NCBI GenBank assembly: GCA_963976765.1
Contig: CAXBME010000005.1
Coordinates: 248,001-312,000 of the forward strand
DNA from: an uncultured Planctomycetaceae bacterium
Lineage (GTDB): Bacteria > Planctomycetota > Planctomycetia > Planctomycetales > Planctomycetaceae
Length of the DNA stretch: 64,000 bases
Direction: 5' to 3'
The position numbers and the translations under genes were made by a program. The notes beneath the pieces are model-generated. The model had not been told where the DNA came from. It saw nothing but the letters and a program-made list of their open reading frames with translations, and searched no databases. Below are positions 3,265 to 31,389 of this stretch, in pieces; positions within the stretch are counted from its first letter, which is position 1, and each line of letters begins with the position of its first letter.

Positions 3265-5067
3265 CTATTCGTCCTTGCCCGAATCAAGGACTGAGAGGAA
3301 CGCTTTCTGCGGAATTTCGACCTCGCCGAACTGCTTCAGGCGTTTCTTGCCTTCCTTCTGCTTGGCCCAGAGTTTTTTCTTGCGTGAAATGTCGCCACCG
3401 TAGCATTTGGCGGTGACATTCTTTTTAAGCGCGGAGATTGTCTCGCGCGCGATGACTCGCATCCCGATTGCAGCCTGCAACGCAATTTCGAACTGGTGCT
3501 TCGATATTTCGCCTTTGAGTCGCTTGACCAGCGCCCGGCCTCGGCGTTCGGAGTTGTCCCGGTGAACAATCGTGGACAGAGCGTCGACTCGATTTCCTTT
3601 GACCAGAACGTCCATTTTGACAAGGTCTGCGGGGCGGAAACCGATGATTTCGTAGTCCATCGTGCCATAACCGCGAGTCGCACTTTTCAGACGATCGTGC
3701 ATGTCGTAAATGACTTCGGCCAGCGGCAAATTGTACGTGACCTGAGCGCGGTTAGTGCCGAGATACTCGGTCCCGATGTAGATGCCGCGACGGTCTTCGC
3801 AAAGCTGCAGAATCACGCCAATGTTCTCTGCTGGAACGATGAAGGTCACTTTCGCAATCGGTTCGCGAAACTCGTCGATCTGTCCAGAATCGGGGACTTC
3901 CTGAGGATTGTCGATCTGCTTGACTTCGCCCGTCTTCAGTTTCAGCTCGTACGTTACGTTTGGCGCCGTTTGAATCAGGTCGATCTCGGCTTCGTTTTCC
4001 AGTCGCTGCTGGATGATCTCCATGTGAAGCATGCCGAGGAAACCACAACGGAATCCAAACCCGAGCGCATCGCTGGTTTCCGGCAGGAAGGAAAAACTGG
4101 CATCGTTCAGAGCCATCTTCTGCAATTCGGCGCGCAGCTTTTCGAAATCGGTTGCGTCGATCGGATACATTCCGCAGAACACCATCTGTTGCGGAGTCGC
4201 GTAGCCTGGCAAAGCTTTCGTCGCAGGGTTTGATCGGCTGGTCACCGTGTCGCCAACGTGAACCATGCTCAGCTCTTTGATCCCGCAAAGCATGTATCCA
4301 ACCTGGCCTGGGCCGAGTTCGTCACAAGGTTTCATGCCTGGGCGGAACTGACCGAGTTCCAGAACTTCATGAACCGATCCGCCCTTCATGTACTGGATTT
4401 GCTGCCCTTTGCGGACGGTGCCTTCCTTGACTCGCAGATAGGTAATGACGCCTCGAAAACCGTCGTACTTACTGTCAAACACCAGCGCTTGCAGCGGGTT
4501 GTCGGCCTTTCCCGAGGGCGGTGGAACCTGCTTGACGATGGCTTCCAGAACGTCATTGACATTGAGTCCGGTTTTGGCGCTGACCAGAATCGAGCTGAGA
4601 CCATCCAGCCCCAGAATGGTTTCGATTTCTTCCATGACCTCCTCGATGCGCACCACCGGCAGGTCAATCTTGTTGATGACCGGGACGATTTCGAGATCGG
4701 CTTCAATCGCCGCGTAGGTATTGGCGACGGTCTGAGCCTGGACTCCCTGGAAAGCGTCGACCAGCAGCAGCGCGCCTTCGCAGGCTGCGAGACTGCGTGA
4801 AACTTCGTAGTGAAAGTCAACGTGGCCGGGCGTGTCGATCAGATTCAGCTCGTACGTCTTACCTTCGTACTTGAAATAAATCGCGACGGTACGGGCCTTG
4901 ACCGTAATGCCCCGTTCCCGCTCGACGTCCAGGTCGTCCAGAATCTGTTCTTTGAATTCCCGCTGAGTGATCGCTCCCGTCTGAAGCAGAAACTGATCGG
5001 CCAGCGTGCTCTTGCCGTGGTCAATGTGGGCAACGATCGAGAAGTTGCGAATTAACGAGGTATCCAT
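3265..5067 (-). CDS. lepA: Translation elongation factor 4 (LepA)
   Basis: IRNFSIVAHIDHGKSTLAD, ERERGITVKA, DTPGHVDF, GFRCGFLGMLHMEI, KCYGGDISRKKKL; 600 aa. Confidence 0.98.
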   Translation of the reverse strand: MDTSLIRNFSIVAHIDHGKSTLADQFLLQTGAITQREFKEQILDDLDVERERGITVKARTVAIYFKYEGKTYELNLIDTPGHVDFHYEVSRSLAACEGALLLVDAFQGVQAQTVANTYAAIEADLEIVPVINKIDLPVVRIEEVMEEIETILGLDGLSSILVSAKTGLNVNDVLEAIVKQVPPPSGKADNPLQALVFDSKYDGFRGVITYLRVKEGTVRKGQQIQYMKGGSVHEVLELGQFRPGMKPCDELGPGQVGYMLCGIKELSMVHVGDTVTSRSNPATKALPGYATPQQMVFCGMYPIDATDFEKLRAELQKMALNDASFSFLPETSDALGFGFRCGFLGMLHMEIIQQRLENEAEIDLIQTAPNVTYELKLKTGEVKQIDNPQEVPDSGQIDEFREPIAKVTFIVPAENIGVILQLCEDRRGIYIGTEYLGTNRAQVTYNLPLAEVIYDMHDRLKSATRGYGTMDYEIIGFRPADLVKMDVLVKGNRVDALSTIVHRDNSERRGRALVKRLKGEISKHQFEIALQAAIGMRVIARETISALKKNVTAKCYGGDISRKKKLWAKQKEGKKRLKQFGEVEIPQKAFLSVLDSGKDE

Positions 5068-5584
5068 AGACGGGTAGCCAGTAACGCGGTGAGAAGAACG
5101 CCGAGTCGATTATGCGAGGTCGACAGGAGGGCGGGAAAGTAGCACGAATCGTCTTTCGGTTGTTCAACGGGAAGGCATTATGACCAGGGAGCTGAACAGC
5201 GACCGAAAACCGTCTGCAGAGTCTGGAGTTTTCAACCTCTCTGCTGAGAGGCGAATGTTAACGACAGCGAAGTAGCCGGTCGACGGATTTCCCACTTCAC
5301 AGCCGCAATCCATTCAGAAGGTGACAGAATTTCGACAGAACTAACCGATTCTGACCGTCGCAAGAGCGACCTGCAGCTCACTTTTGCGCTGTATGAAGCG
5401 GGCGTTGCGACGATGAAGCAGAACCTGCTGAGGCGGCGTCCCGATGCGACGGAAGCGGAGCGGCGCGAAATGTTGCAAGCCCGGCTGCTGAACACTCCGC
5501 TGCAGGGAGTCCCATTTGAAGCACGGGACAGGCCGGAGACCGCCGCCGGATGATCCTGCTTTCTGCAGCCTTCGCGAGAACGAT

Positions 5585-6214
5585 TCACGGATAAAGCATC
5601 TGCTTTGTCCACGTTTTACCGTCGGCTTCGTAGACAAAGCGTTCGTGGAGGCGGCCTTCGCGACCAGACCAGAGTTCGATTCGGTGCGGGATAACGCGGT
5701 ACCCGAACCAGTGTGGCGGACGCGAGACGTCCTGTCCTTCAAATCGTTTTTCAATCTCGGCGACCCGTGCCATGAATTCGTCGCGACCGGACAGTGGCCG
5801 AGACTGGTCCGACGCCCAGGCGCCAATCTGGCTCAGGCGGGCGCGAGTTCTCCAGTACCTGTCAGATTCAGAGTCAGAAATCACTTCGACGCGACCTTCG
5901 ACATGCACCTGCTCGGCCCACGCGTCCCAGAAAAATGTCAGAGCCACCTGAGGATTGCCAGCCATCTGAGTGCCCTTGCGACTTTGCGAGTTCGTGAAAA
6001 AAACGAAGCCGCGTTCGTCGATGCCTCGCAGCAGAACCGTTCGAATGGACGGCTGTCCGTTCGCGTTGACGGTGGCCAGGCTCATGGCCGATGGCTCCCG
6101 CACGCCGAGTTCCGCCGTACGAGCGTGCTTTTCCCGGAACGTGTTGATCGCTTCAAGATAGAGCGGGTCATAGCTGTCGTTTGATTTTGAAGATTCTGCA
6201 GACTCAATCGTCAT
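5585..6214 (-). CDS. pdxH: Pyridoxamine 5'-phosphate oxidase
   Basis: EPSAMSLATV, RTVLLRG, FFTNSQSRKG, SQIGAWASDQS, RPPHWFGY, RLHERF, C-terminal LYP. Confidence 0.95.
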   Translation of the reverse strand: MTIESAESSKSNDSYDPLYLEAINTFREKHARTAELGVREPSAMSLATVNANGQPSIRTVLLRGIDERGFVFFTNSQSRKGTQMAGNPQVALTFFWDAWAEQVHVEGRVEVISDSESDRYWRTRARLSQIGAWASDQSRPLSGRDEFMARVAEIEKRFEGQDVSRPPHWFGYRVIPHRIELWSGREGRLHERFVYEADGKTWTKQMLYP

Positions 6215-6222
6215 CGAAATTC

Positions 6223-6723
6223 TCAGTCCTCATATTTGCGGGTATCGACTTCGGCGTAGGATTCCAGTGCGGTCAGCATTCGCTCCAGCAGGGCAACCAT
6301 TTTCGGCAGGTCGGTTTCCAGCAGACGTTCGAGCTGGCTCATCCGCCCGCGAAATTCGTCCGCTTCGTGCCGCACCTTGATGCACATCGCTTTGACGATT
6401 CGCATCTTCTCCTGGCAGTAGGCGAGGCGGTCCTTAGCATCTCGAAGTGCCTGCTTTTCTTCAATCAGCGACGGACGATAGTCGTCCATCGATTTCCGCA
6501 TTCGCGCGCCCTCGAGTGCGATTCTCGCTTCAGAAATCTGATCGAGAGCCTGCAGTTCCTGCTGGTGCCAGTGCCTGGGACGATCATTTTCCATCCACTC
6601 CAGAGCCGAGTAAACCTGCTCCTGCATTGATGTCAGTGCATCGCTGACGTTCTGCTGAAACGTCAGCAGAGCTACGCGGAAATCGCGAACTGCTTCGATG
6701 GATCGGACATTGGCGGTCGACAT
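6223..6723 (-). CDS. Helical WXG100-like partner protein
   Basis: 166-aa predicted all-helical/coiled-coil protein (ANVRSIEAVRDFR..L..F; central W) directly downstream of the WXG100-like gene. Confidence 0.65.
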   Translation of the reverse strand: MSTANVRSIEAVRDFRVALLTFQQNVSDALTSMQEQVYSALEWMENDRPRHWHQQELQALDQISEARIALEGARMRKSMDDYRPSLIEEKQALRDAKDRLAYCQEKMRIVKAMCIKVRHEADEFRGRMSQLERLLETDLPKMVALLERMLTALESYAEVDTRKYED

Positions 6724-6786
6724 GGGGCAATCGATCAAGGGAATACGGCGGAGTGTGTTACGGGCAGCGGCGGGGGAGCACGCGGA

Positions 6787-7059
6787 TCAACGCTGCTGAA
6801 GGTATTCTTCGATCCGCTCGGCTTTGCGGAGCAGATACGGAATGTGGTCGTTGTTCGATTCGACGAAGCGAGCCAGTAGTCGCATATGCTGTTCAAACTG
6901 CTCGCAGAACTTCTTGTTTTCCTGATCCCGCCAGGTGTTGCTGACCGTTGCTAACTGGTTGGCCAGAGCTGTTGATTGTTCAAGCAGTCCCTCGTTGAAT
7001 TTCTTCAGCGTCTGGGCAAACTGCCGGAGTTGCACCGGATCAACAATTGCTTGAGCCAT
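6787..7059 (-). CDS. WXG100-family (ESAT-6-like) protein
   Basis: 90 aa from ATG 7059 with GAGGT RBS; MAQAIVDP..LRQFA..LK.F, central W-R-D turn, helix-turn-helix hairpin pattern. Confidence 0.8.
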   Translation of the reverse strand: MAQAIVDPVQLRQFAQTLKKFNEGLLEQSTALANQLATVSNTWRDQENKKFCEQFEQHMRLLARFVESNNDHIPYLLRKAERIEEYLQQR

Positions 7060-7324
7060 GTCGCTACCTCGTGGAAAGTTGTCTGAGTCACATTGTTCAG
7101 ATTCTCGCGCTGAGCAGCCATCGACGCAAGGAGCGTCACACTCAGCCAGACTTGCAGGTACCTGTTCTGCCGGGTGAAGTCCGTCGACGATCGGTCGCAA
7201 AGCCGTCATCATTCAGCTGGAACACGCATACTCCTGCGTATTCAGGCTGGATACGAATTCTGGCTTGAGCTCTCAACTCAGAGTTTCCGTTGCTCACTCT
7301 CAAACAAAGAGCCATTCGACGTCT

Positions 7325-24415: not shown

Positions 24416-24644
24416 GGCGGTTATCTTTGACGTCGTGCGGATTTATTGAGAGTTCAGGTCGATTCAGCCTCCTGCGGTGATTGCGGAAGGGCCCGAGCAC
24501 AAGACCCAGAGCGTGCGAATGGTCGCATCGATCGGTGATTTGATCAATCAACAAACCGACTCAATCAGCCCGCTCACCGTCAGAAGTTACGGTCAGCAAG
24601 AGTCGACCCGCGAAGCATCACCGTGGCATCACCCGCTGCATTTC

Positions 24645-24714
24645 AAGTCAACGGCTCATCTGTGGATTACATGGCTTGGCAGCAGTCACAAAACCGCTCT
24701 CAAGCACGACCTGC
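24645..24714 (+). pseudogene. Remnant of the 3' end of a related tyrosine integrase
   Basis: Translates KSTAHLWITWLGSSHKTALKHDL versus KYPAHVVCEWLGNSHKVALKHYL in the intact integrase (14/23 identical); catalytic Tyr replaced by Asp. Confidence 0.75.
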
Positions 24715-24716
24715 CG

Positions 24717-24832
24717 GCACCGACGAGAACCGAGTTACTCAGAAATGCAAAAAGCCCCGGAAAATCCGAGGCTTTGCTGAATGGTGCCGAGCGGTTCCGC
24801 TCTGTTCCTGTCGTAAAAGTGGGCGATGCAGG
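24717..24832. repeat. Left att direct repeat (116 bp)
   Basis: Identical to 31214-31329 except T24735/C31232; last 13 bp are the reverse complement of the tRNA-Val 3' end. Confidence 0.95.
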
Positions 24833-25124
24833 CCCAGAACATATCGACGATTTCCCGGAGAAAACTGCCATTCTCGGGAAAGGTATATCAGAACTCACTC
24901 GCGAAGAGCTGATTTCGCTTGCCAGCAGCCTCGCCGAACAGCTTGCGAAACTCGCTTCGAAACCATCATAGCCAACGTTTCAAATCTGATTCCAAAAGTT
25001 TTCTGCCTCAAGGTTACCGCATTGTTTTCAACAGACTTGAACTCTTGAATACATTCAACATCATTAAAGCAAGTGAAACCGATTGGAGATCGACAATTGT
25101 AAACTTGCTCTGACTGGAGAGGCC

Positions 25125-26699
25125 ATGAATTCCATCCAACTACAATCTACGGCAACGGCGATTCTCGGCGTGATGCTTTTCGCCTTAACCTCAACTGTCA
25201 ATGCTCAAGGCGAGAATTCGCGGGAACTATTGACCGCTGTAAAGATCGGCGAGAAGTCCTACGTTGGAGTCGTTCAAGAAAACGAAGACTCACGTTCTGA
25301 GGTTGTTCTTGAGGACGTTACAACAGGCAAAGTTCGAACGTTTCGGAAAGCACAACTTTCTGGGGAAGCTCGGCAAGTAACAGATACGGAAGCAATCGAG
25401 CTTACTGAGAACCCAGCAGCAGTCATCGCTTGGAGATTTTCAAAGTCGATTCCCAAGGGAAGTTTGCACGGAAAGGTTGCCGCCGCAACCGGAGGTCTCA
25501 TCTATACGACATTGGGAAAAGGAGAAGTTGCAGTTGGCAACGAACTCTTGGTCCATCGTGGCGAGACAGTCATCAAAGACCCGGATACTGGTGAAGTTCT
25601 TGGTCGTCAGAAGAGACTTGTCGCCAAAATTGAAGTAACTGCGATTCAGGGACGACTCTCGAAGGCAAGAGTCAAAGGTGACCTTGAGGTCGTTATTCAA
25701 GTTGGTGATCAAGTTGAGTATCAGCAGCCGAGTTCTGCGATTGCCGTACTTCCTCCAAGTGATATCAATGGGGCTGAATTCGAAGGAACAATTCATTTTG
25801 CTGACGAAGTCGTGAATCAACTTGTACGGCGAAAAGTGAAGGTAGTTGAGAGAGCAAAGCTACTGGACACCTTGGAAGAAATGGCCCTGCAATCGACATT
25901 CATTTTTGATGAAGCGACGACAGCAAGAGTCGGTAAGCAACTCGGAGCTACTCATGTAATTACTGGAAGCGTAGCCCGAGCCAGAGGAACTGGACTTACT
26001 GCCCAATTCAATATCAGGCTGGTCAATGTTGCGACTGGTCAGGTTGAGAACTCGTCTATCTTCAAGACGTATCCGTTTCGATTTGTTCCGGCTGGAGAAG
26101 CTAGATCATCAAGTTACAGCTCTGGCAGACGGCGAAAGATCGATGTATTCGAAGGGGTAAAAGCAGTAGCACCTGCAACAGAAAAGGGAAGTTGGGCAAT
26201 CGCACAAGGCGGCATCATGAATACGGCTGACCTTTCAATTATTTCTCTTCCTGTTGAAGCATCTGGCAGCTTTCAACTCGAACTTGAGATCAATCGACTG
26301 TCAGGAGACAACGCTCTGATGATCTTCTTTCCTGTAGGGTCGTCTGCTGCGTCGTATCATATTAGCCACGGCGGCCCATTTGCCGACGGGGAATACCATT
26401 GCTTGGATCACATTGACGGGCAATCTTCGTCGAAGAATGAAACACGGTCGAATGGCAGGATTCCCAACGGTCAATGGATCAAGGTTTCATTGGATGTGAG
26501 TATTCGGAGAGACAAAGCGACGATTGAAGCAACGCTGGGAGGAAAGCAGATAATCAAATGGGAAGGTGACGTGAGCAGAATTGCTCCTTCGCCAGGTTGG
26601 CATGTAGCCAACAGAAAGCAGTTTGGTTTGGGAGTTCAACGTTCAAGGGTTGCTTTTAGAAATCTCGAAATTACGGGAACTGCAAAACCTGTAAGGTGA
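25125..26699 (+). CDS. Secreted cargo protein: FlgT-C-like + CsgG/HfaB(FlgO)-like + C-terminal beta-sandwich (DUF1080-like)
   Basis: GGAGAGG RBS, signal peptide; IKDPDTGEVLG...AKIEVT...SKA; VVER..L...LEE.ALQ...DEATTARVGKQLGATHVITGS; FQLELE...VAFRNLEI. Confidence 0.7.
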   Translation: MNSIQLQSTATAILGVMLFALTSTVNAQGENSRELLTAVKIGEKSYVGVVQENEDSRSEVVLEDVTTGKVRTFRKAQLSGEARQVTDTEAIELTENPAAVIAWRFSKSIPKGSLHGKVAAATGGLIYTTLGKGEVAVGNELLVHRGETVIKDPDTGEVLGRQKRLVAKIEVTAIQGRLSKARVKGDLEVVIQVGDQVEYQQPSSAIAVLPPSDINGAEFEGTIHFADEVVNQLVRRKVKVVERAKLLDTLEEMALQSTFIFDEATTARVGKQLGATHVITGSVARARGTGLTAQFNIRLVNVATGQVENSSIFKTYPFRFVPAGEARSSSYSSGRRRKIDVFEGVKAVAPATEKGSWAIAQGGIMNTADLSIISLPVEASGSFQLELEINRLSGDNALMIFFPVGSSAASYHISHGGPFADGEYHCLDHIDGQSSSKNETRSNGRIPNGQWIKVSLDVSIRRDKATIEATLGGKQIIKWEGDVSRIAPSPGWHVANRKQFGLGVQRSRVAFRNLEITGTAKPVR

Positions 26700-26835
26700 T
26701 TTAGAGTTGGTAGACCAAATCAAAAGGTTAAGAATTCAAGGCTTCAATGAAATGTAACTGTGGGCATCTAATGAAAATGAATGCCTCGTGTATTCGTCGC
26801 CGCATTTGAGCCGCCGATTTGCGTCCGATTTCCCA

Positions 26836-27052
26836 ACTATTTCGGGAAAACTTCGAAAACTTCCCGGAATTATCCGGTAAAACGCCCACTACAGGAGCCT
26901 ATAGGGTGAGAGACGACATCGAACTTGCAGACAGCCACGTCACCGACGGTTGAGCGTCGAGTTTCCAGCAGCAGCCCTGACTATTTCGGGAAAAATTTGG
27001 AAACTTCCCGGAATTATCCGCCAAAACGTCCACCGCCAGAGCCTATAGGGTG
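26836..27052. repeat. Two 73-bp direct repeats, 144 bp apart (26836-26908, 26980-27052)
   Basis: Manual alignment gives 63/73 identity; shared blocks ACTATTTCGGGAAAA, AAACTTCCCGGAATTATCCG, GAGCCTATAGGGTG. Confidence 0.9.
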
Positions 27053-27162
27053 GGGCAGTCGATCGCGGCGGCTTTCACTCACTCTCAGTTCCGACGTTGG
27101 CACATCAGGGAACTTTGAGACTCTGGATACAGAACAGCCGTTCCGAATCCGGAAGAATTGGC

Positions 27163-27717
27163 CTGATTCGCCCGGAATCAGCTCGCACAACTACTCTTTC
27201 TCGGCATGTATTATAGAGAGCTTGTACCAACCACTTCTCTCCAACCACTCACCCCACCACCACAGCACACGCTCAGTCACAAATCGAACGAACGATTAAC
27301 TGAGCTTCCCACAGTGCTATTGGTTAGTGAAGCAGTCCCACCGTTGAACTTCAAACAGTTCAATTGATTGAGGGGAAAGCGTTCGGCTCAATTCAATCTG
27401 AGCCGCCATTGCTTTAGAGGCCAATGCTGAAGCCTCACGAAACTGATTCTTTTGCTTTCGAATCAGAAACGAAAACTGATCGCTCTGCTGATTGAATTCG
27501 TCATTCATCGACGAAAATGCAGAAGCTCAAGCTCAGTTGAAGAACCACAATCTTAGTTTCTCCTGCTTGTTTGAAGGTGACTGATTTCCGGCTTTTGCTT
27601 AGCCGTGAATGAAGGCCCCCGCCGCCTTCGGGGATGCCATCTCACCAGAGTGTGAACAAACAATACCCACCTCGCTTTCCATGTGCTGTTTCGGCTTTTG
27701 CCGGAGCAGCTTTTTTT
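27163..27717 (+). ncRNA. Candidate structured non-coding RNA/leader (or folded ssDNA signal)
   Basis: Series of 5-7 bp stems plus a 10-bp long-range pairing (27298-27307 with 27529-27538), ending in a hairpin + T7 terminator; no convincing ORF. Confidence 0.45.
27685..27717 (+). terminator. Intrinsic terminator/attenuator just upstream of the polymerase-like gene
   Basis: GCTGTTTCGGC-TTTT-GCCGGAGCAGC-TTTTTTT. Confidence 0.8.
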
Positions 27718-27750
27718 GTGTCTCGTGTTCTATCGAAAGGAAACCCAAGA

Positions 27751-29082
27751 GTGACAACATCAAAGAAAAGAGTTTTAACAGCGGCGAAGCTGATCGAGAG
27801 CAGTGCTTTTAAGAATCTCCAGCCTATTGATCTTGCCTTTCAAAGCTGGAAATCTCAGAGGATACATCAAGAGAACATCATCCTGACTCTTTGGGCAATT
27901 ATTCAAAGAAACAAATCAAGAAATGCGTTCGTCAAGATTCACAGCACGAAGCTGCTTTCATACGGAGGGACCAACTACTCAAAGTATTTAGGCTGGCTAA
28001 TCAAAGAAGGATTCATCGAGAGACGCGGCCCATACATTCCAAATCATTCAAGCTGGAAGTACCGCATTCAGGAGAAAGGCCAGCAACTTGAAGAGTACGA
28101 ACTACTGACATCCAGAAAGTTCATGCCGTCTCCCAACTTGTCATCCATGACAGAAATCGAAAGCGAGACCTATCGAAACCTGATGAACTTGAAAATCGAT
28201 TTGGCTGAAGCAGAAGCCATATTCGCTGGCATCCGGCCAGCGGCACAGATTTCAGCAAGAATGGCAATCAATGAATTCGCCAATCAATCTTTCTGTCCTT
28301 CCCAATCAAACAAGACCGGGAGGGTTTCGTCAGTTGTGACCTATATGAACTCGCCATTAAGGGCTGCACTCACTTGGCACGGCGATGAAATCATGTCGGT
28401 GGATGTTGTGAATTCTCAACCGCTTTGTCTTGCGGCGATTGCTGACTGTCCGAAGTACCAATCCATTGTTGAATCGGGCCAGATTTATGAAGAGATTCAG
28501 CAGGGCATCGGGGTATCTGAAAGAGACTTGGCAAAGACAGCGTTCATGACCTTTGCCTATGGGCCAATCTGCAATTCAAAACCTGCGACCTACGGCAGAA
28601 CAGCAGAAGAGATTGCCCTCAACGATCCAGTCAAAAGAAAGTCGATCACTCGAAAAGCGGCCAGACTCAGAAAGAAAGGATTAGCAGTTCCTGATGAAGC
28701 AGCATTGAAAAAGAAACTCGAAACGAAGCGACTCAAGAAAGAACTCAGGGCCAGAACAGCAGAGTTCTTCAGAACGAAGTTTCCGAAAGCTGTCAAAGTT
28801 CTGGATTCGCTGAAGAGTGGATCGACCGAAAAGCCATATCGAAAAGCAGCATGGAAACTACAGCAGATTGAAGCCGAAGCCGTTATCGAAAGCTGCTTTC
28901 TGCCTTTGGCCCGGAAAGAGATTCCAGTGCTAAGCGTTCATGATTGCTTGCTTACAACGCCAGCCAGTGTAAGTGCCGTTGAGAATGCAATGTCAAAGGA
29001 GATAGCGGCTCACCTTGGCAAGATTGCTGGCCGAAAATGCGTGGTTGAACTCAAGACTACGAAATGGAGAAAACCTACCTAG
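27751..29082 (+). CDS. Minimal family-A-polymerase-like protein (wHTH-like N-terminus + palm/fingers, no exonuclease domain)
   Basis: TGRVSS, motif A-like SVDVVNSQP, motif B-like RDLAKTAFMTFAYG, LQQIEA, motif C-like LSVHDCLL; GTG start at 27751 after AAAGGA (443 aa). Confidence 0.75.
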   Translation: MTTSKKRVLTAAKLIESSAFKNLQPIDLAFQSWKSQRIHQENIILTLWAIIQRNKSRNAFVKIHSTKLLSYGGTNYSKYLGWLIKEGFIERRGPYIPNHSSWKYRIQEKGQQLEEYELLTSRKFMPSPNLSSMTEIESETYRNLMNLKIDLAEAEAIFAGIRPAAQISARMAINEFANQSFCPSQSNKTGRVSSVVTYMNSPLRAALTWHGDEIMSVDVVNSQPLCLAAIADCPKYQSIVESGQIYEEIQQGIGVSERDLAKTAFMTFAYGPICNSKPATYGRTAEEIALNDPVKRKSITRKAARLRKKGLAVPDEAALKKKLETKRLKKELRARTAEFFRTKFPKAVKVLDSLKSGSTEKPYRKAAWKLQQIEAEAVIESCFLPLARKEIPVLSVHDCLLTTPASVSAVENAMSKEIAAHLGKIAGRKCVVELKTTKWRKPT

Positions 29083-29266
29083 AACAAGAATAGAGAGAGA
29101 AGAGAGAGGGCTGCACCTAGGGTCTATGTTTTTCGTTTTGACAGATTTCGCCTCGTCACTGCGAGCATTGGCCGTGCCGACTGATCGATCACGGTCGAAC
29201 AACAGAAAGGAGAGTAAGCAATGACCTGACAAAGAATCACTGACTGAAAATCACGAAGTTGTGTTG

Positions 29267-29325: not shown

Positions 29326-29679
29326 ATGAGTTTGAATTCAAGTGAAGCAGCATGGTTAAGAAAAGTGCTGTTCATCATTGCCACGTATCATGATCAATGT
29401 GTAGCCCAAGCAGAGAAGGCTGGAGATCGTGCTGGAGTGAAGTATCACGCGGCAAAAGCGATTTGGTCTCGTGCTATTGGCGAGAACGCTGAATTTCGAC
29501 AAGGCGTGGAAACTGAAGAACTACGCGAGCTGGCTGGAGAACTGAGCGATCAAAGAAACCGGAGCTTGGAGTCTCTCGAATCAGGCGGAGAAGAATTGAT
29601 TGCAACGGAAACCAAAGAGCAATCAGAGATTGCTGAGTTCTGCCGGATCATGGAAAGGAGATGCCAAGAGAATATGTAG
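29326..29679 (+). CDS. Hypothetical helical protein (element-encoded)
   Basis: 117-aa ORF with GAAGGA RBS, flanked by terminators; no family recognised. Confidence 0.65.
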   Translation: MSLNSSEAAWLRKVLFIIATYHDQCVAQAEKAGDRAGVKYHAAKAIWSRAIGENAEFRQGVETEELRELAGELSDQRNRSLESLESGGEELIATETKEQSEIAEFCRIMERRCQENM

Positions 29680-29823: not shown

Positions 29824-30069
29824 ATGAATGACGATGTTTCTAAAATTACCTTCGAACAGAGTTTGAGTCAGTCTTCAACTGACCAAACCGTATCTCGCAG
29901 CGATGTGAGCTTGCTGTCGAAGAAAGATATTTCCTGCCTGTTCCAGATCAGTGAACGACAAGTCACGAATCTGATGAAGACCCCCCGATTTCCGAAGAAG
30001 ATTAAGGGGCTTGGCAGAAGCGTTCGGTTCTCAGCCTCAGCGGTGAAGGAGTTCGTACAGAATGGCTAG
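29824..30069 (+). CDS. AlpA/excisionase-like HTH protein
   Basis: LLSKKDISCLFQISERQVTNLMKTPRFPKKIKGLGRSVRFS...VKEFV; overlaps integrase start by 8 nt. Confidence 0.85.
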   Translation: MNDDVSKITFEQSLSQSSTDQTVSRSDVSLLSKKDISCLFQISERQVTNLMKTPRFPKKIKGLGRSVRFSASAVKEFVQNG

Positions 30070-31357
30070 TCTTACCCAAACTCCAAAGGGACCGAAGATT
30101 CAACTGATTTGCCCAGACGGGAAACGACGCCCGATTTATCTGGGTGCGAAACTTACGAAACGACAAGCTGAATCTGTGCTGAGCTACGTCGAAAGATTGG
30201 CTCACTCTGTCGAAAGTAACACAGTTCCAGAGAGAGAAGTTTCTAAATGGCTCGGGGAAGTTCCCGAGAAACTCTATAAGAAGCTGGTTACATGTGGACT
30301 TGCAACGGCTCGTGAGAAGATCGTGAGCCAAACAATCGAGCGTCTGATTTCAGACTATGTGGCAAGTCGAAATGGAGTCGCAGAATCGACGATAGCCAGA
30401 TGGACGACTGTGACGAATCACCTGTTTGCCTACTTTGGAAAAGAGAAGCCATTAACCGAAGTGACGGCAGGGGATGCTGATGACTTCAGTGAGTATTTGA
30501 AGTCAAAAGGCACTGCTGACAACAGCCGCAGAAGATATCTCGGAATCGCAAAGCAATTCTTTACATGGGCTGTCCGCCACAAGCTGATTGCGGAGAATCC
30601 ATTTGCTGATCAGAAGACCTCAGTTGGTGACAGTGATCCCAAACGGCAGTTCTTCGTAGATCGCGAGTTGTCAGAAAGAATTCTTGAAACCTGCCCGGAT
30701 TCAGAATGGAAGCTGATCTTTGCTCTGATGAGGTTTGGCGGTTTACGTTGTCCAACAGAAGTTCTGAATCTTCGATGGGAAGACATTCTTTGGGGTAAGT
30801 CTCGATTTCGTATCTACAGTCAGAAGACAGATCAAACGAGATACTGTCCGATCTTTCCGGAACTCCTGCCGTATCTAAGTTCAAGTTTTGAATTAGCTGA
30901 TGACGGTGAAGAATTCGTGATTTCAAAACGACACGGGATGACGCATCGAGGATTGATTGCTCAGTACAAACGAATCCTGCATTTTGCTGCCGTAGATCAG
31001 TACCCGAAGCTGTTTCAGAATCTGCGGTCCACCAGACAGACGGAATTGACCCGTAAGTACCCGGCTCACGTCGTCTGTGAATGGCTCGGTAACAGTCATA
31101 AAGTCGCTCTGAAGCACTACCTGCAAGTTACAGACGAGGATTTCGAGGCGGCAGCCGCAAAAGTAGATCACTTGCCCGAAAAAGTAGATCACATAGTAGA
31201 TCAGCACCCGCACGCACCGACGAGAACCGAGCTACTCAGAAATGCAAAAAGCCCCGGAAAATCCGAGGCTTTGCTGAATGGTGCCGAGCGGTTCCGCTCT
31301 GTTCCTGTCGTAAAAGTGGGCGATGCAGGAATCGAACCTGCGACTTCCACCGTGTGA
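30062..31357 (+). CDS. Tyrosine recombinase/integrase
   Basis: SAM-like core-binding domain (ENPF), catalytic GGLRCPTE, SQKT, FQNLRST, WLGNS, KHYL; 3' end reads through the att repeat into antisense tRNA. Confidence 0.95.
   Translation: MASLTQTPKGPKIQLICPDGKRRPIYLGAKLTKRQAESVLSYVERLAHSVESNTVPEREVSKWLGEVPEKLYKKLVTCGLATAREKIVSQTIERLISDYVASRNGVAESTIARWTTVTNHLFAYFGKEKPLTEVTAGDADDFSEYLKSKGTADNSRRRYLGIAKQFFTWAVRHKLIAENPFADQKTSVGDSDPKRQFFVDRELSERILETCPDSEWKLIFALMRFGGLRCPTEVLNLRWEDILWGKSRFRIYSQKTDQTRYCPIFPELLPYLSSSFELADDGEEFVISKRHGMTHRGLIAQYKRILHFAAVDQYPKLFQNLRSTRQTELTRKYPAHVVCEWLGNSHKVALKHYLQVTDEDFEAAAAKVDHLPEKVDHIVDQHPHAPTRTELLRNAKSPGKSEALLNGAERFRSVPVVKVGDAGIEPATSTV
31159..31204. repeat. Three AGTAGATCA direct repeats, putative integrase arm-type sites
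   Basis: AAAAGTAGATCAC x2 then TAGTAGATCAG, inside the integrase 3' end next to the att repeat. Confidence 0.65.
31214..31329. repeat. Right att direct repeat (116 bp)
   Basis: Copy of 24717-24832; overlaps the tRNA 3' end and includes hairpin AAAGCCCCGGA-AAA-TCCGAGGCTTT, a likely minus-strand tRNA terminator. Confidence 0.95.
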
Positions 31358-31389
31358 AGATGGCACTCTAGCCGCTGAGTTAATCGCCC
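31317..31389 (-). tRNA. tRNA-Val (anticodon CAC)
   Basis: Reverse complement GGGCGATTAACTCAGCGGCTAGAGTGCCATCTTCACACGGTGGAAGTCGCAGGTTCGATTCCTGCATCGCCCA folds as a cloverleaf; CCA not encoded. Confidence 0.96.

Follow-up and report, generated by a model that had tools for sequence, protein, structure and literature searches.

The window analyzed here is a 64,000-nucleotide (nt) stretch of contig CAXBME010000005.1 from an uncultured Planctomycetaceae bacterium (assembly GCA_963976765.1). It contains a 6.4-kb low-GC island, an integrative element at a tRNA-Val gene that is bounded by 124-nt direct repeats. One gene of the island encodes a 443-amino-acid (aa) protein (database protein P0001) in which a predicted winged helix is joined to a minimal family-A polymerase of the TV-Pol type. 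This protein is a conserved core gene next to a recombinase in a small integrated element, and we consider it probable, at roughly 0.6, that it serves as the TV-Pol-type replication module of that element, acting as an origin-binding primase-polymerase of the excised island. The core of the island consists of an integrase, an excisionase-like gene, and the winged-helix TV-Pol, which is also the practical annotation of the window (Table 1).

A minimal polymerase domain of the Pol I and T7 RNA polymerase superfamily

An AlphaFold2 model built with 60 family sequences (predicted local distance difference test, pLDDT, 89.6; predicted template modeling score, pTM, 0.82) has the right-hand thumb-palm-fingers fold of Pol I. 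The best Foldseek matches of the model were all family-A DNA polymerases, with E values from 5e-7. Structural realignment of residues 125 to 442 superposed about 250 residues with a root mean square deviation of 3.1 to 3.3, giving Z scores of 16.6 for Pol theta, 16.3 for Taq, 16.2 for Bst, 15.8 for T7 DNA polymerase (DNAP), and 15.5 for Klenow; the alignments to solved polymerases began at residues 125 to 134. A search independent of Foldseek returned Klenow (Z score of 15.3), Pol theta (15.2), apicoplast Pol (15.0), yeast mitochondrial RNA polymerase (RNAP) (14.7), T7 DNAP (14.5), T7 RNAP (11.4), and N4 RNAPII (9.9). The initial annotation of this DNA, made from the letters alone, had recognized the palm and fingers set shared by Pol I, T7 RNAP, and TV-Pol, and the alignment of the model to family-A polymerases at Z scores of 15 to 16.6 bears this out. 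The predicted fold, the right hand of Pol I and T7 RNAP, does not suffice to tell a DNA polymerase from an RNA polymerase.

The motifs on which that annotation was based (TGRVSS, SVDVVNSQP, motif B, LQ.IEA, and VHD) are all present in the order given, in an open reading frame (ORF) of 443 aa at 27751-29082. LQQIEA lies at residues 370 to 375, YSKYLGWLIKEGFIERRG at residues 76 to 93, and KYRI at residues 103 to 106, and strands of the model at residues 184-185 and 192-193 flank R191. The annotation had also seen little room for a thumb. The domain is indeed small, yet a three-helix element at residues 135 to 178 occupies the place of the thumb. The absence of exonuclease motifs holds as well: Pfam placed no nuclease or exonuclease domain in the protein, which has the predicted winged helix at residues 1 to 122 instead. 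Residues 125 to 443 are thus modeled as a minimal polymerase with thumb, palm, and fingers, which belongs to the Pol I and T7 RNAP superfamily and has an intact, conserved catalytic core.

Sequence libraries give little guidance to this assignment. Searches of Pfam, NCBIfam, and PHROGs with the protein returned weak matches only (HTH_45, Sso10a, phrog_4756, and phrog_2051), and a phmmer search of the Protein Data Bank (PDB) found nothing meaningful. DNA_pol_A (PF00476) did not match the protein at E values up to 1 and matched none of 60 family members at E values up to 0.1. The significant direct similarity is to phage DNA polymerases. In a tblastn search of 50,697 phage records, 47 were matched, all weakly (E value of about 3e-3) and over residues 202 to 312; among 20 listed matches, 15 fell under DNA polymerase genes of SP6/K1-type podophages, 2 under "hypothetical protein", and 3 in unannotated records, one of them a 595-kb phage. 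A BLASTP comparison with the DNA polymerase of Klebsiella phage K1-ULIP33 gave 34 identities in 103 positions (33%) over residues 211 to 312, ungapped through motifs A and B, with an E value of 4e-9 that refers to this single pairwise comparison. With hhalign, the motifs lined up with T7 RNAP and T7 DNAP at negligible statistics, T7 RNAP over only 20 columns of motif B.

Two other identities were considered and rejected. A decayed Pol I pseudogene does not agree with an intact ORF whose catalytic residues are conserved in 157 sequences, and neither the fold nor the family of an archaeo-eukaryotic or DnaG-type primase was seen.

Active-site residues and the nature of the product

Residue tallies were taken over 157 family sequences. 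The catalytic set is almost invariant, with R191 retained in 155 sequences, D218 in 154, K262 in 154, H397 in 155, and D398 in 155, and two phage DNAPs have their motif A Asp at the position of D218. E374, the Glu of the LQxxE motif, is kept in 155 of 157 and is as strict as the catalytic Asp. The T7 DNAP counterpart of TGRVSS reads TGRATH.

The residues at the sugar-selecting positions are unlike those of DNA polymerases. Q223 lies, without gaps, opposite the Glu of DGAGLELR in phage K1-ULIP33 DNAP and of DASGLELR in T7 DNAP, which is the steric-gate position; here the family has Gln in 150 of the 157 sequences and Glu in none, followed by Pro at position 224 (150/157). Position 399, directly after D398, is Ser in 111, Cys in 31, Ala in 8, Gly in 4, and Glu in 1. 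Position 266 (Phe 81, Leu 26, Met 16, and Tyr 12) is taken here to be the equivalent of Pol I F762 and T7 RNAP M635, and position 270 (Phe 89 and Tyr 55) that of Pol I Y766 and T7 RNAP Y639. The Pol I and T7 RNAP residues at these positions act in sugar choice, and a Y639F change lets T7 RNAP accept deoxynucleoside triphosphates (dNTPs). E710 and F762 are named as the sugar-discriminating residues of Pol I in the account of CcPol (PMC7581432). Motif B, RDLAKTAFMTFAYG, and motif C, VHDC, read nearer to those of T7 RNAP (RSVTKRSVMTLAYG and IHDS) than to those of T7 DNAP (RDNAKTFIYGFLYG and VHDE). The product may be either DNA or RNA, because Gln stands for the steric-gate Glu, motif C is HD(S/C) rather than HDE, and mitochondrial RNAP ties with the DNA polymerases in fold.

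It is possible, though we think it unlikely, that the protein is a DNA-directed RNA polymerase that transcribes the element genes from a promoter of its own or makes an RNA primer at the origin, with the winged helix binding the promoter. T7 and mitochondrial RNA polymerases transcribe from promoters and make origin primers in this way. The motif C of HDC here and HDS in 111 of 157 sequences resembles IHDS of T7 RNAP, DNA polymerases having HDE, and MTFAYG in motif B resembles MTLAYG of T7 RNAP; the predominance of Gln at the steric gate and the structural matches to the yeast mitochondrial, T7, and N4 enzymes point the same way. So do several sequence matches below or near significance. RNA_pol (PF00940) had no match in the protein and matched 5 of 60 members weakly (best E value of 0.021), phrog_2051, annotated "RNA polymerase", matched the protein at an E value of 0.009, and the coherent top matches of the family profile among PDB sequences (Pol theta, N4 RNAPII, and mitochondrial RNAP) were none of them significant (E values of 0.34 to 1.7). 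Yutin et al. raise the same possibility in their discussion of divPolA2, a phage protein (PMC11348598). Set against this, the equivalent of T7 RNAP Y639 is Phe more often (89/157) than Tyr (55/157), Gln is close to Glu in size and may still block the 2'-hydroxyl, and direct similarity in sequence reaches significance with DNA polymerases only. Furthermore, the N-terminal, promoter-specificity, and specificity-loop parts of T7-like RNAPs were not seen in P0001, and a 6.4-kb island hardly needs its own RNA polymerase.

The predicted winged-helix N terminus and the basic insertion

A separate model of residues 1 to 128, built with 19 sequences, had a pLDDT of 73.7 (85 to 93 for residues 40 to 110). 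Foldseek matched it to TubR, AspA, the MarR family, BigR, CadC, and Sso10a, with a best E value of 0.015, and an exhaustive aligner returned MarR-family proteins, the Rio2 N-terminal domain, MotA, and TubR at middling Z scores of 8.7 to 7.2. The best matches are uniformly winged-helix DNA binders, in agreement with weak HTH_45, Sso10a, ScpB, and GMT-wHTH matches from Pfam and NCBIfam. The winged-helix-like N terminus of the initial annotation is thereby upheld, and the models support with moderate strength the assignment of this domain as a winged helix. The domain belongs to the family, since 19 of 32 relatives on genome contigs align to the family profile from positions 1 to 6.

The Lys/Arg-rich insertion after motif B, also noted from the sequence at the outset, is real and is a trait of a small clade rather than of the whole family. 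The spacing from K262 to P345 is 82 residues in P0001, P0002, and P0003 and 64 in P0005, compared with 21 to 45 in the other 56 of 60 members, so that the insertion is some 40 to 60 residues longer than in those relatives. Its 71 residues (273 to 343) include 22 Lys and Arg versus 8 Asp and Glu, and it is modeled as helices at 296-308 and 316-343 (pLDDT of 93 to 98).

A longer form of the protein, 482 aa from an ATG at 27634, would add 39 residues. This start was rejected: the extension is not conserved, and the closest relatives, P0002 and P0003 (77% and 62% identity), lack it and begin at the equivalent of 27751. The coordinates 27751-29082 given by the initial annotation are correct for these same reasons. 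A strong hairpin followed by a T run lies within the 39-residue extension, 30 nt upstream of the GTG; it could terminate transcription that arrives from upstream, or serve as an attenuator. Terminator-like hairpins are not in excess in the region (4, versus 3.4 in shuffled sequences).

The island and its borders

The GC content falls from 56 to 57% outside to 46 to 50% between about 24 and 32 kb of the window. The genes of the island follow one another in the order 538-aa ORF, about 1 kb without a supported gene, polymerase-like gene, 117-aa ORF, 94-aa ORF, and integrase, and the genome holds a single copy of the polymerase-like gene. The integrase ORF extends across the right attachment (att) repeat and enters the tRNA; its final 40 or so codons fall within the 124-nt repeat. 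Its C-terminal peptide, PTRTELLRNAKSPGKSEALLNGAERFRSVPVVKVGDAG, is also encoded by the left repeat, in a 164-aa ORF (24477-24971). In the right repeat, 14 nt belong to the tRNA and the remaining 110 nt lie downstream of it.

The 94-aa protein scored below the curated cutoffs for HTH_17 and Phage_AlpA and had PHROG matches of the excisionase type, so it is likely an excisionase or regulator. The 538-aa ORF, the largest of the island, combines an LpoB-like region with a weakly 3-keto-disaccharide-hydrolase-like C terminus and is probably cargo, because it has no relative in other elements. A 21-nt core of the two 73-nt direct repeats occurs three times, the third, partial copy being at 27171-27191, and the repeats are candidates for an origin or iterons. 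DNA folding of the repeat region (26820-27200) was unremarkable, with a z-score of -2.0, and an Rfam search found only the tRNA.

An empty att site could not be demonstrated, because the site is conserved too little: in a comparison with 40 further genomes from the same family, a match was obtained for the YebC gene alone, in 8 of them, and in 7 loci scanned of those 8 there was no tRNA within 1.5 kb. In a marsh metagenome from a different study (run X3), contigs 95 to 99% alike to parts of window positions 25394-28551 cover the cargo ORF, the repeats, and the polymerase gene, and the chromosomal flanks and the integrase region are absent from them; at a depth of only 2 to 3, these contigs hint weakly at the presence of the element in other places.

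Table 1. Coordinates of the island features in the window and of the motifs and predicted domains of the polymerase-like protein
Feature	Position	Strand	Details
Left direct repeat (attL-like)	24709..24832	.	124 nt, 97% identical to 31206-31329
538-aa ORF, lipoprotein-like, probable cargo	25083..26699	+	Pfam LpoB E 1.1e-6; weak 3keto-disac_hyd E 0.043
Two 73-nt direct repeats	26836-26908 and 26980-27052	.	86% identical, spaced 144 nt
Hairpin and T run upstream of the GTG start	27685..27720	+	11-pair stem, 7 G-C pairs, then TTTTTTT
Predicted winged helix plus minimal family-A (TV-Pol-type) polymerase, 443 aa	27751..29082	+	database protein P0001; GTG start
Predicted N-terminal winged-helix domain, aa 1-122	27751..28116	+	domain model matches; weak Pfam HTH_45 E 0.04
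Predicted minimal thumb-like helices, aa 125-180	28123..28290	+	helices 135-145, 151-159, 163-178 in the model
TGRVSS hairpin, invariant R191	28315..28332	+	aa 189-194
Motif A SVDVVNSQP	28396..28422	+	aa 216-224; D218, Q223 at steric-gate position
Motif B	28522..28563	+	aa 258-271; R258, K262, M266, Y270
Clade-specific Lys/Arg-rich helical insertion in fingers	28567..28779	+	aa 273-343; within K262-P345 spacing
Motif C VHDC	28936..28947	+	H397, D398; VHD at aa 396-398
Bulged hairpin and T run after the polymerase stop codon	29263..29302	+	read directly from sequence; not listed by consensus scan
117-aa ORF, no family	29326..29679	+	no match in Pfam, PHROG, NCBIfam
AlpA/HTH_17-like small DNA-binding protein, 94 aa	29785..30069	+	HTH_17 E 4.4e-4; Phage_AlpA E 5.3e-3
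Tyrosine integrase	30062..31357	+	Phage_int_SAM_5 E 3.4e-11; Phage_integrase E 3.9e-9
Right direct repeat (attR-like)	31206..31329	.	overlaps tRNA 3' end by 14 nt
tRNA-Val(CAC), integration target	31316..31389	-	ARAGORN; Rfam tRNA 64.3 bits

Spread of the family and neighborhoods of its members

In an exhaustive search with HMMER, the family comprised 858 representative clusters at E values up to 0.001, 34 of them at E values up to 1e-10. Most members are 350 to 650 aa long, and Planctomycetota, Bacteroidota, Ignavibacteria, and phages all have members. Of 301 genomes sampled from the phylum, 5 had a match, a metagenome scan with P0001 recovered a single weak relative besides one scaffold identical to the window, and a pattern scan of species-representative genomes yielded 35 loci, mostly from Planctomycetota, Ignavibacteria, and Bacteroidota. 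No fused longer forms, such as a fusion to a D5 helicase, appeared among 8000 candidates of 850 to 2425 aa, which is weak evidence. Six uncultured phages of 595 to 735 kb (LR756511, LR756501, LR756503, LR745206, LR756502, and LR756504) each carry a family member with 27 to 31% identity to P0096.

Neighborhoods were counted in 24 of the 35 loci, 11 with partial or duplicate matches being left out, and took in 148 of 157 ORFs within 3 kb of the homolog. A tyrosine integrase was present in 11 of the 24 and a serine recombinase in 2, so that 13 loci have a recombinase; an HTH_17/AlpA gene occurs in 5, 2 of which also have an integrase, bringing the loci with either kind of gene to 16. One VapE/D5-like helicase and one primase-helicase zinc ribbon were found among the 24 loci. 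Within 39 related loci, the polymerase is the only island gene with relatives, save for one weak match each of the integrase and the AlpA-like ORF; the 117-aa, 124-aa, and 538-aa ORFs and a 63-aa ORF on the minus strand had none there.

This distribution bears on the idea that the protein is cargo of the island with a task in defense or conflict, such as an enzyme producing a nucleic acid upon phage infection. Small islands frequently carry defense genes, and some relatives stand beside type I restriction genes (loci L027 and L038) or an SNF2/NOV_C helicase (L025). The polymerase is, however, a conserved core gene beside the recombinase rather than variable cargo, and we regard a defense role as highly improbable.

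Two loci from one genome (G285) have other surroundings. Upstream of the family member on contig 17 (L007), a run of genes at 4277-7311 encodes a Thg1-like guanylyltransferase, an RNA ligase, an HD plus AAA_33 kinase-like protein, and PTH2 and looks like an RNA or tRNA repair cassette. A second copy in the same genome (L008, contig 8, 9489-11036), whose match has one in-frame TAG, is surrounded by genes for a ParB-methylase, a second DNA methylase, a YAcAr/SLOG protein, and a ResIII/HA helicase; by its gene content, this region looks like a prophage or other mobile element.

Proposed role in the element

We infer that the most likely role of the protein is that of an origin-binding primase-polymerase for the excised island. 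In such a scheme, the integrase and the AlpA-like protein would excise the element as a circle, and the winged helix would dock the protein on the origin, possibly the 73-nt repeats 0.7 to 0.9 kb upstream. The polymerase domain would then start a strand de novo and extend it. Since the element has no helicase gene, the remaining work would fall to host enzymes or the host replisome. In the fingers, the Lys/Arg-rich helical insert may serve to hold the template, a job that a separate partner resembling a single-stranded-DNA-binding protein (SSB) does for CcPol, the polymerase of SCCmec.

Several observations weigh against this proposal. No helicase and no recognizable SSB family was found among the island ORFs in Pfam, PHROG, or NCBIfam matches, and CcPol alone cannot prime without its partner MP, according to the assays reported by Bebel et al. 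(PMC7581432). Neither a joint across the island nor a circle junction was found in the contigs of three DNA runs, contigs being apt to drop rare forms. In 8 of the 24 neighborhoods, there is no recombinase or HTH_17/AlpA gene within 3 kb. The steric-gate Glu and the motif C Glu of DNA polymerases are missing from the family (0 and 1 of 157), and the yeast mitochondrial RNAP, level with the DNA polymerases in the structural search, leaves room for an RNA product. A member of the family on a 35-kb Hymenobacter plasmid coexists with an ordinary Rep gene of the plasmid's own. Phage relatives have a regular DNA polymerase as a neighbor and stand in contexts that vary, as Yutin et al. describe for divPolA2 (PMC11348598), so the family may not be the main replicase.

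The phage and plasmid cases would also suit an accessory DNA polymerase that is not an initiator and that works in repair, gap filling, or DNA synthesis tied to recombination when an element integrates, excises, or transposes; repair is among the suggestions of Yutin et al. for the phage proteins (PMC11348598). Site-specific tyrosine recombination requires no DNA synthesis, however, and the fused winged helix, conserved from profile positions 1 to 6 in 19 of 32 relatives, suits site-specific action better than general repair. An accessory function of this kind therefore seems quite improbable.

The initial annotation had proposed a primase, RNA polymerase, or initiator that acts on the adjacent repeats or structured region. 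Of its interpretation, the structural part is supported; the functional part remains a hypothesis, and nothing in the present results links the protein to the 73-nt repeats or to positions 29080-29200. A bolder version of the origin-binding primase-polymerase, which we find doubtful, would make winged-helix TV-Pols one-protein replicons, in which a chain of 440 aa unites origin reader, primase, and polymerase for islands that have no helicase. In the clade of P0001, the basic helical hairpin of the fingers would replace the SSB partner with which CcPol grips a template that lacks a primer, and the near-invariant Gln together with HD(S/C) would allow a start with ribonucleotides and continuation with deoxyribonucleotides.

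The family is very large (858 clusters), has no Pfam or NCBIfam model that matches P0001, and is in print by computation only, with one distant relative, CcPol-MP, as its sole biochemical anchor. If its members prime alone, small integrative elements and phages would have in them a major class of replication initiators that is still unannotated, and the enzymes would be compact candidates for sequence-directed, primer-free synthesis. Were the one-protein replicon true, priming would have a third solution, one derived from Pol I and widespread among Planctomycetota, Bacteroidota, and phages.

Comparison with known systems

The protein belongs to a kind that was described computationally in 2008 and 2024. 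Membership in a characterized family of known function had been named in the initial annotation as one outcome that would overturn it, and this holds by half: the family is in print, as TV-Pol (2008), and connects to divPolA2 (2024), yet the sole assay is of the distant CcPol-MP. The finding is less novel than first held, because the family had already been described (2008, with a link to divPolA2 of 2024). The winged-helix assignment, the clade-specific basic insertion, and the residue tallies at the sugar-selecting positions are modest additions. A search of the literature on TV-Pol, CcPol, and A-family primases found no assay of a winged-helix TV-Pol, and the 2023 reclassification of family-A polymerases leaves the P0001 family uncovered (PMC10201439).

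T7-like and mitochondrial RNAPs share with P0001 the palm and fingers core, an HD(S/C)-type motif C, and an MTxAYG-type motif B, at the Z scores of 11.4 and 14.7 given above. P0001 is about half their size or less and has no significant sequence match to them.

CcPol-MP of SCCmec, a family-A polymerase reported as a proven dNTP primase (Bebel et al. 2020, PMC7581432) and treated again by Rice (2022/2023, 10.1101/2022.12.02.518924), is, in these accounts, the sole relative with demonstrated de novo priming of DNA synthesis, and it is distant. Like P0001, CcPol lacks a working exonuclease, belongs to an integrative element, and adjoins a site-specific recombinase. As described, CcPol is a truncated true Pol I relative that keeps the E710 and F762 equivalents and needs the MP protein, which has an oligonucleotide/oligosaccharide-binding fold, and the helicase Cch2. 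P0001 differs in having no Pfam DNA_pol_A match, Q223 and M266 at the E710 and F762 positions, and a fused winged helix, and the family libraries recognized no adjacent helicase or SSB-like partner of the CcPol-MP type among the island ORFs.

The divPolA2 proteins of barbaviruses and Vibrio phages have, in the account of Yutin et al. (2024, PMC11348598), about 430 aa and an active palm; an exonuclease is absent, and the N-terminal globular domain is of unknown kind. As possible functions, the authors suggest either a repair DNA polymerase or an RNA polymerase. P0001 resembles them in length, in its active-looking palm, in the lack of an exonuclease, in the N-terminal globular domain, and in having both DNA and RNA polymerases as structural neighbors. 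The representative AUR84708 falls in phrog_4756 (E value of 1.8e-91), a group matched by 21 of 60 family members (best E value of 1.2e-13) and by P0001 itself at an E value of 0.0054 over residues 357 to 455 of the 482-aa form. The family profile aligned with AUR84708 over 173 columns (probability of 65%, E value of 5.9e-5); a whole-record profile search of the genome of AUR84708 gave nothing at E values up to 1. In contrast to the HD(S/C) of the P0001 family, AUR84708 has FDE, and the published setting of divPolA2 is a phage genome with a regular PolB rather than a small integrase island.

The family profile found nothing in the genome of phage Ma-LMM01, and there was no significant score to a named TV-Pol. 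A 506-aa Ma-LMM01 ORF beside IS605-type transposases, which we take, unconfirmed, to be the TV-Pol of the 2008 description, has weak similarity to the N-terminal domain (E value of 0.017 by hhalign and 0.004 by hmmsearch, for one sequence).

In the passages on TV-Pols of Iyer, Abhiman, and Aravind (2008, PMC2579912), these enzymes have 400 to 600 residues, a thumb of two helices, and never a nuclease domain, together with a beta-hairpin bearing an invariant Arg, two catalytic Asp residues, and RxxxK in the fingers. Planctomycetes, among them Rhodopirellula and Gemmata, are included in the hosts. A subset has an uncharacterized N-terminal domain and lies next to lambda-type integrases, resolvases, or transposases, and TV-Pols are predicted there to prime and polymerize in the elements linked to these enzymes. 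P0001 agrees with this description in its core, with 443 aa, helices at 135 to 178, the R191 hairpin, D218, R258-K262, D398, and no nuclease, and in its mobile-element setting, with an integrase of its own, att repeats, and tRNA-Val, and with a recombinase in 13 of the 24 loci of relatives. It departs from the description in two respects: the N-terminal domain, predicted in that paper to be all helical, is modeled as a winged helix, and the clade of P0001 has a basic fingers insertion some 40 to 60 residues longer. The family of the protein fits TV-Pol, and probably the subset in which an N-terminal domain is linked to integrases.

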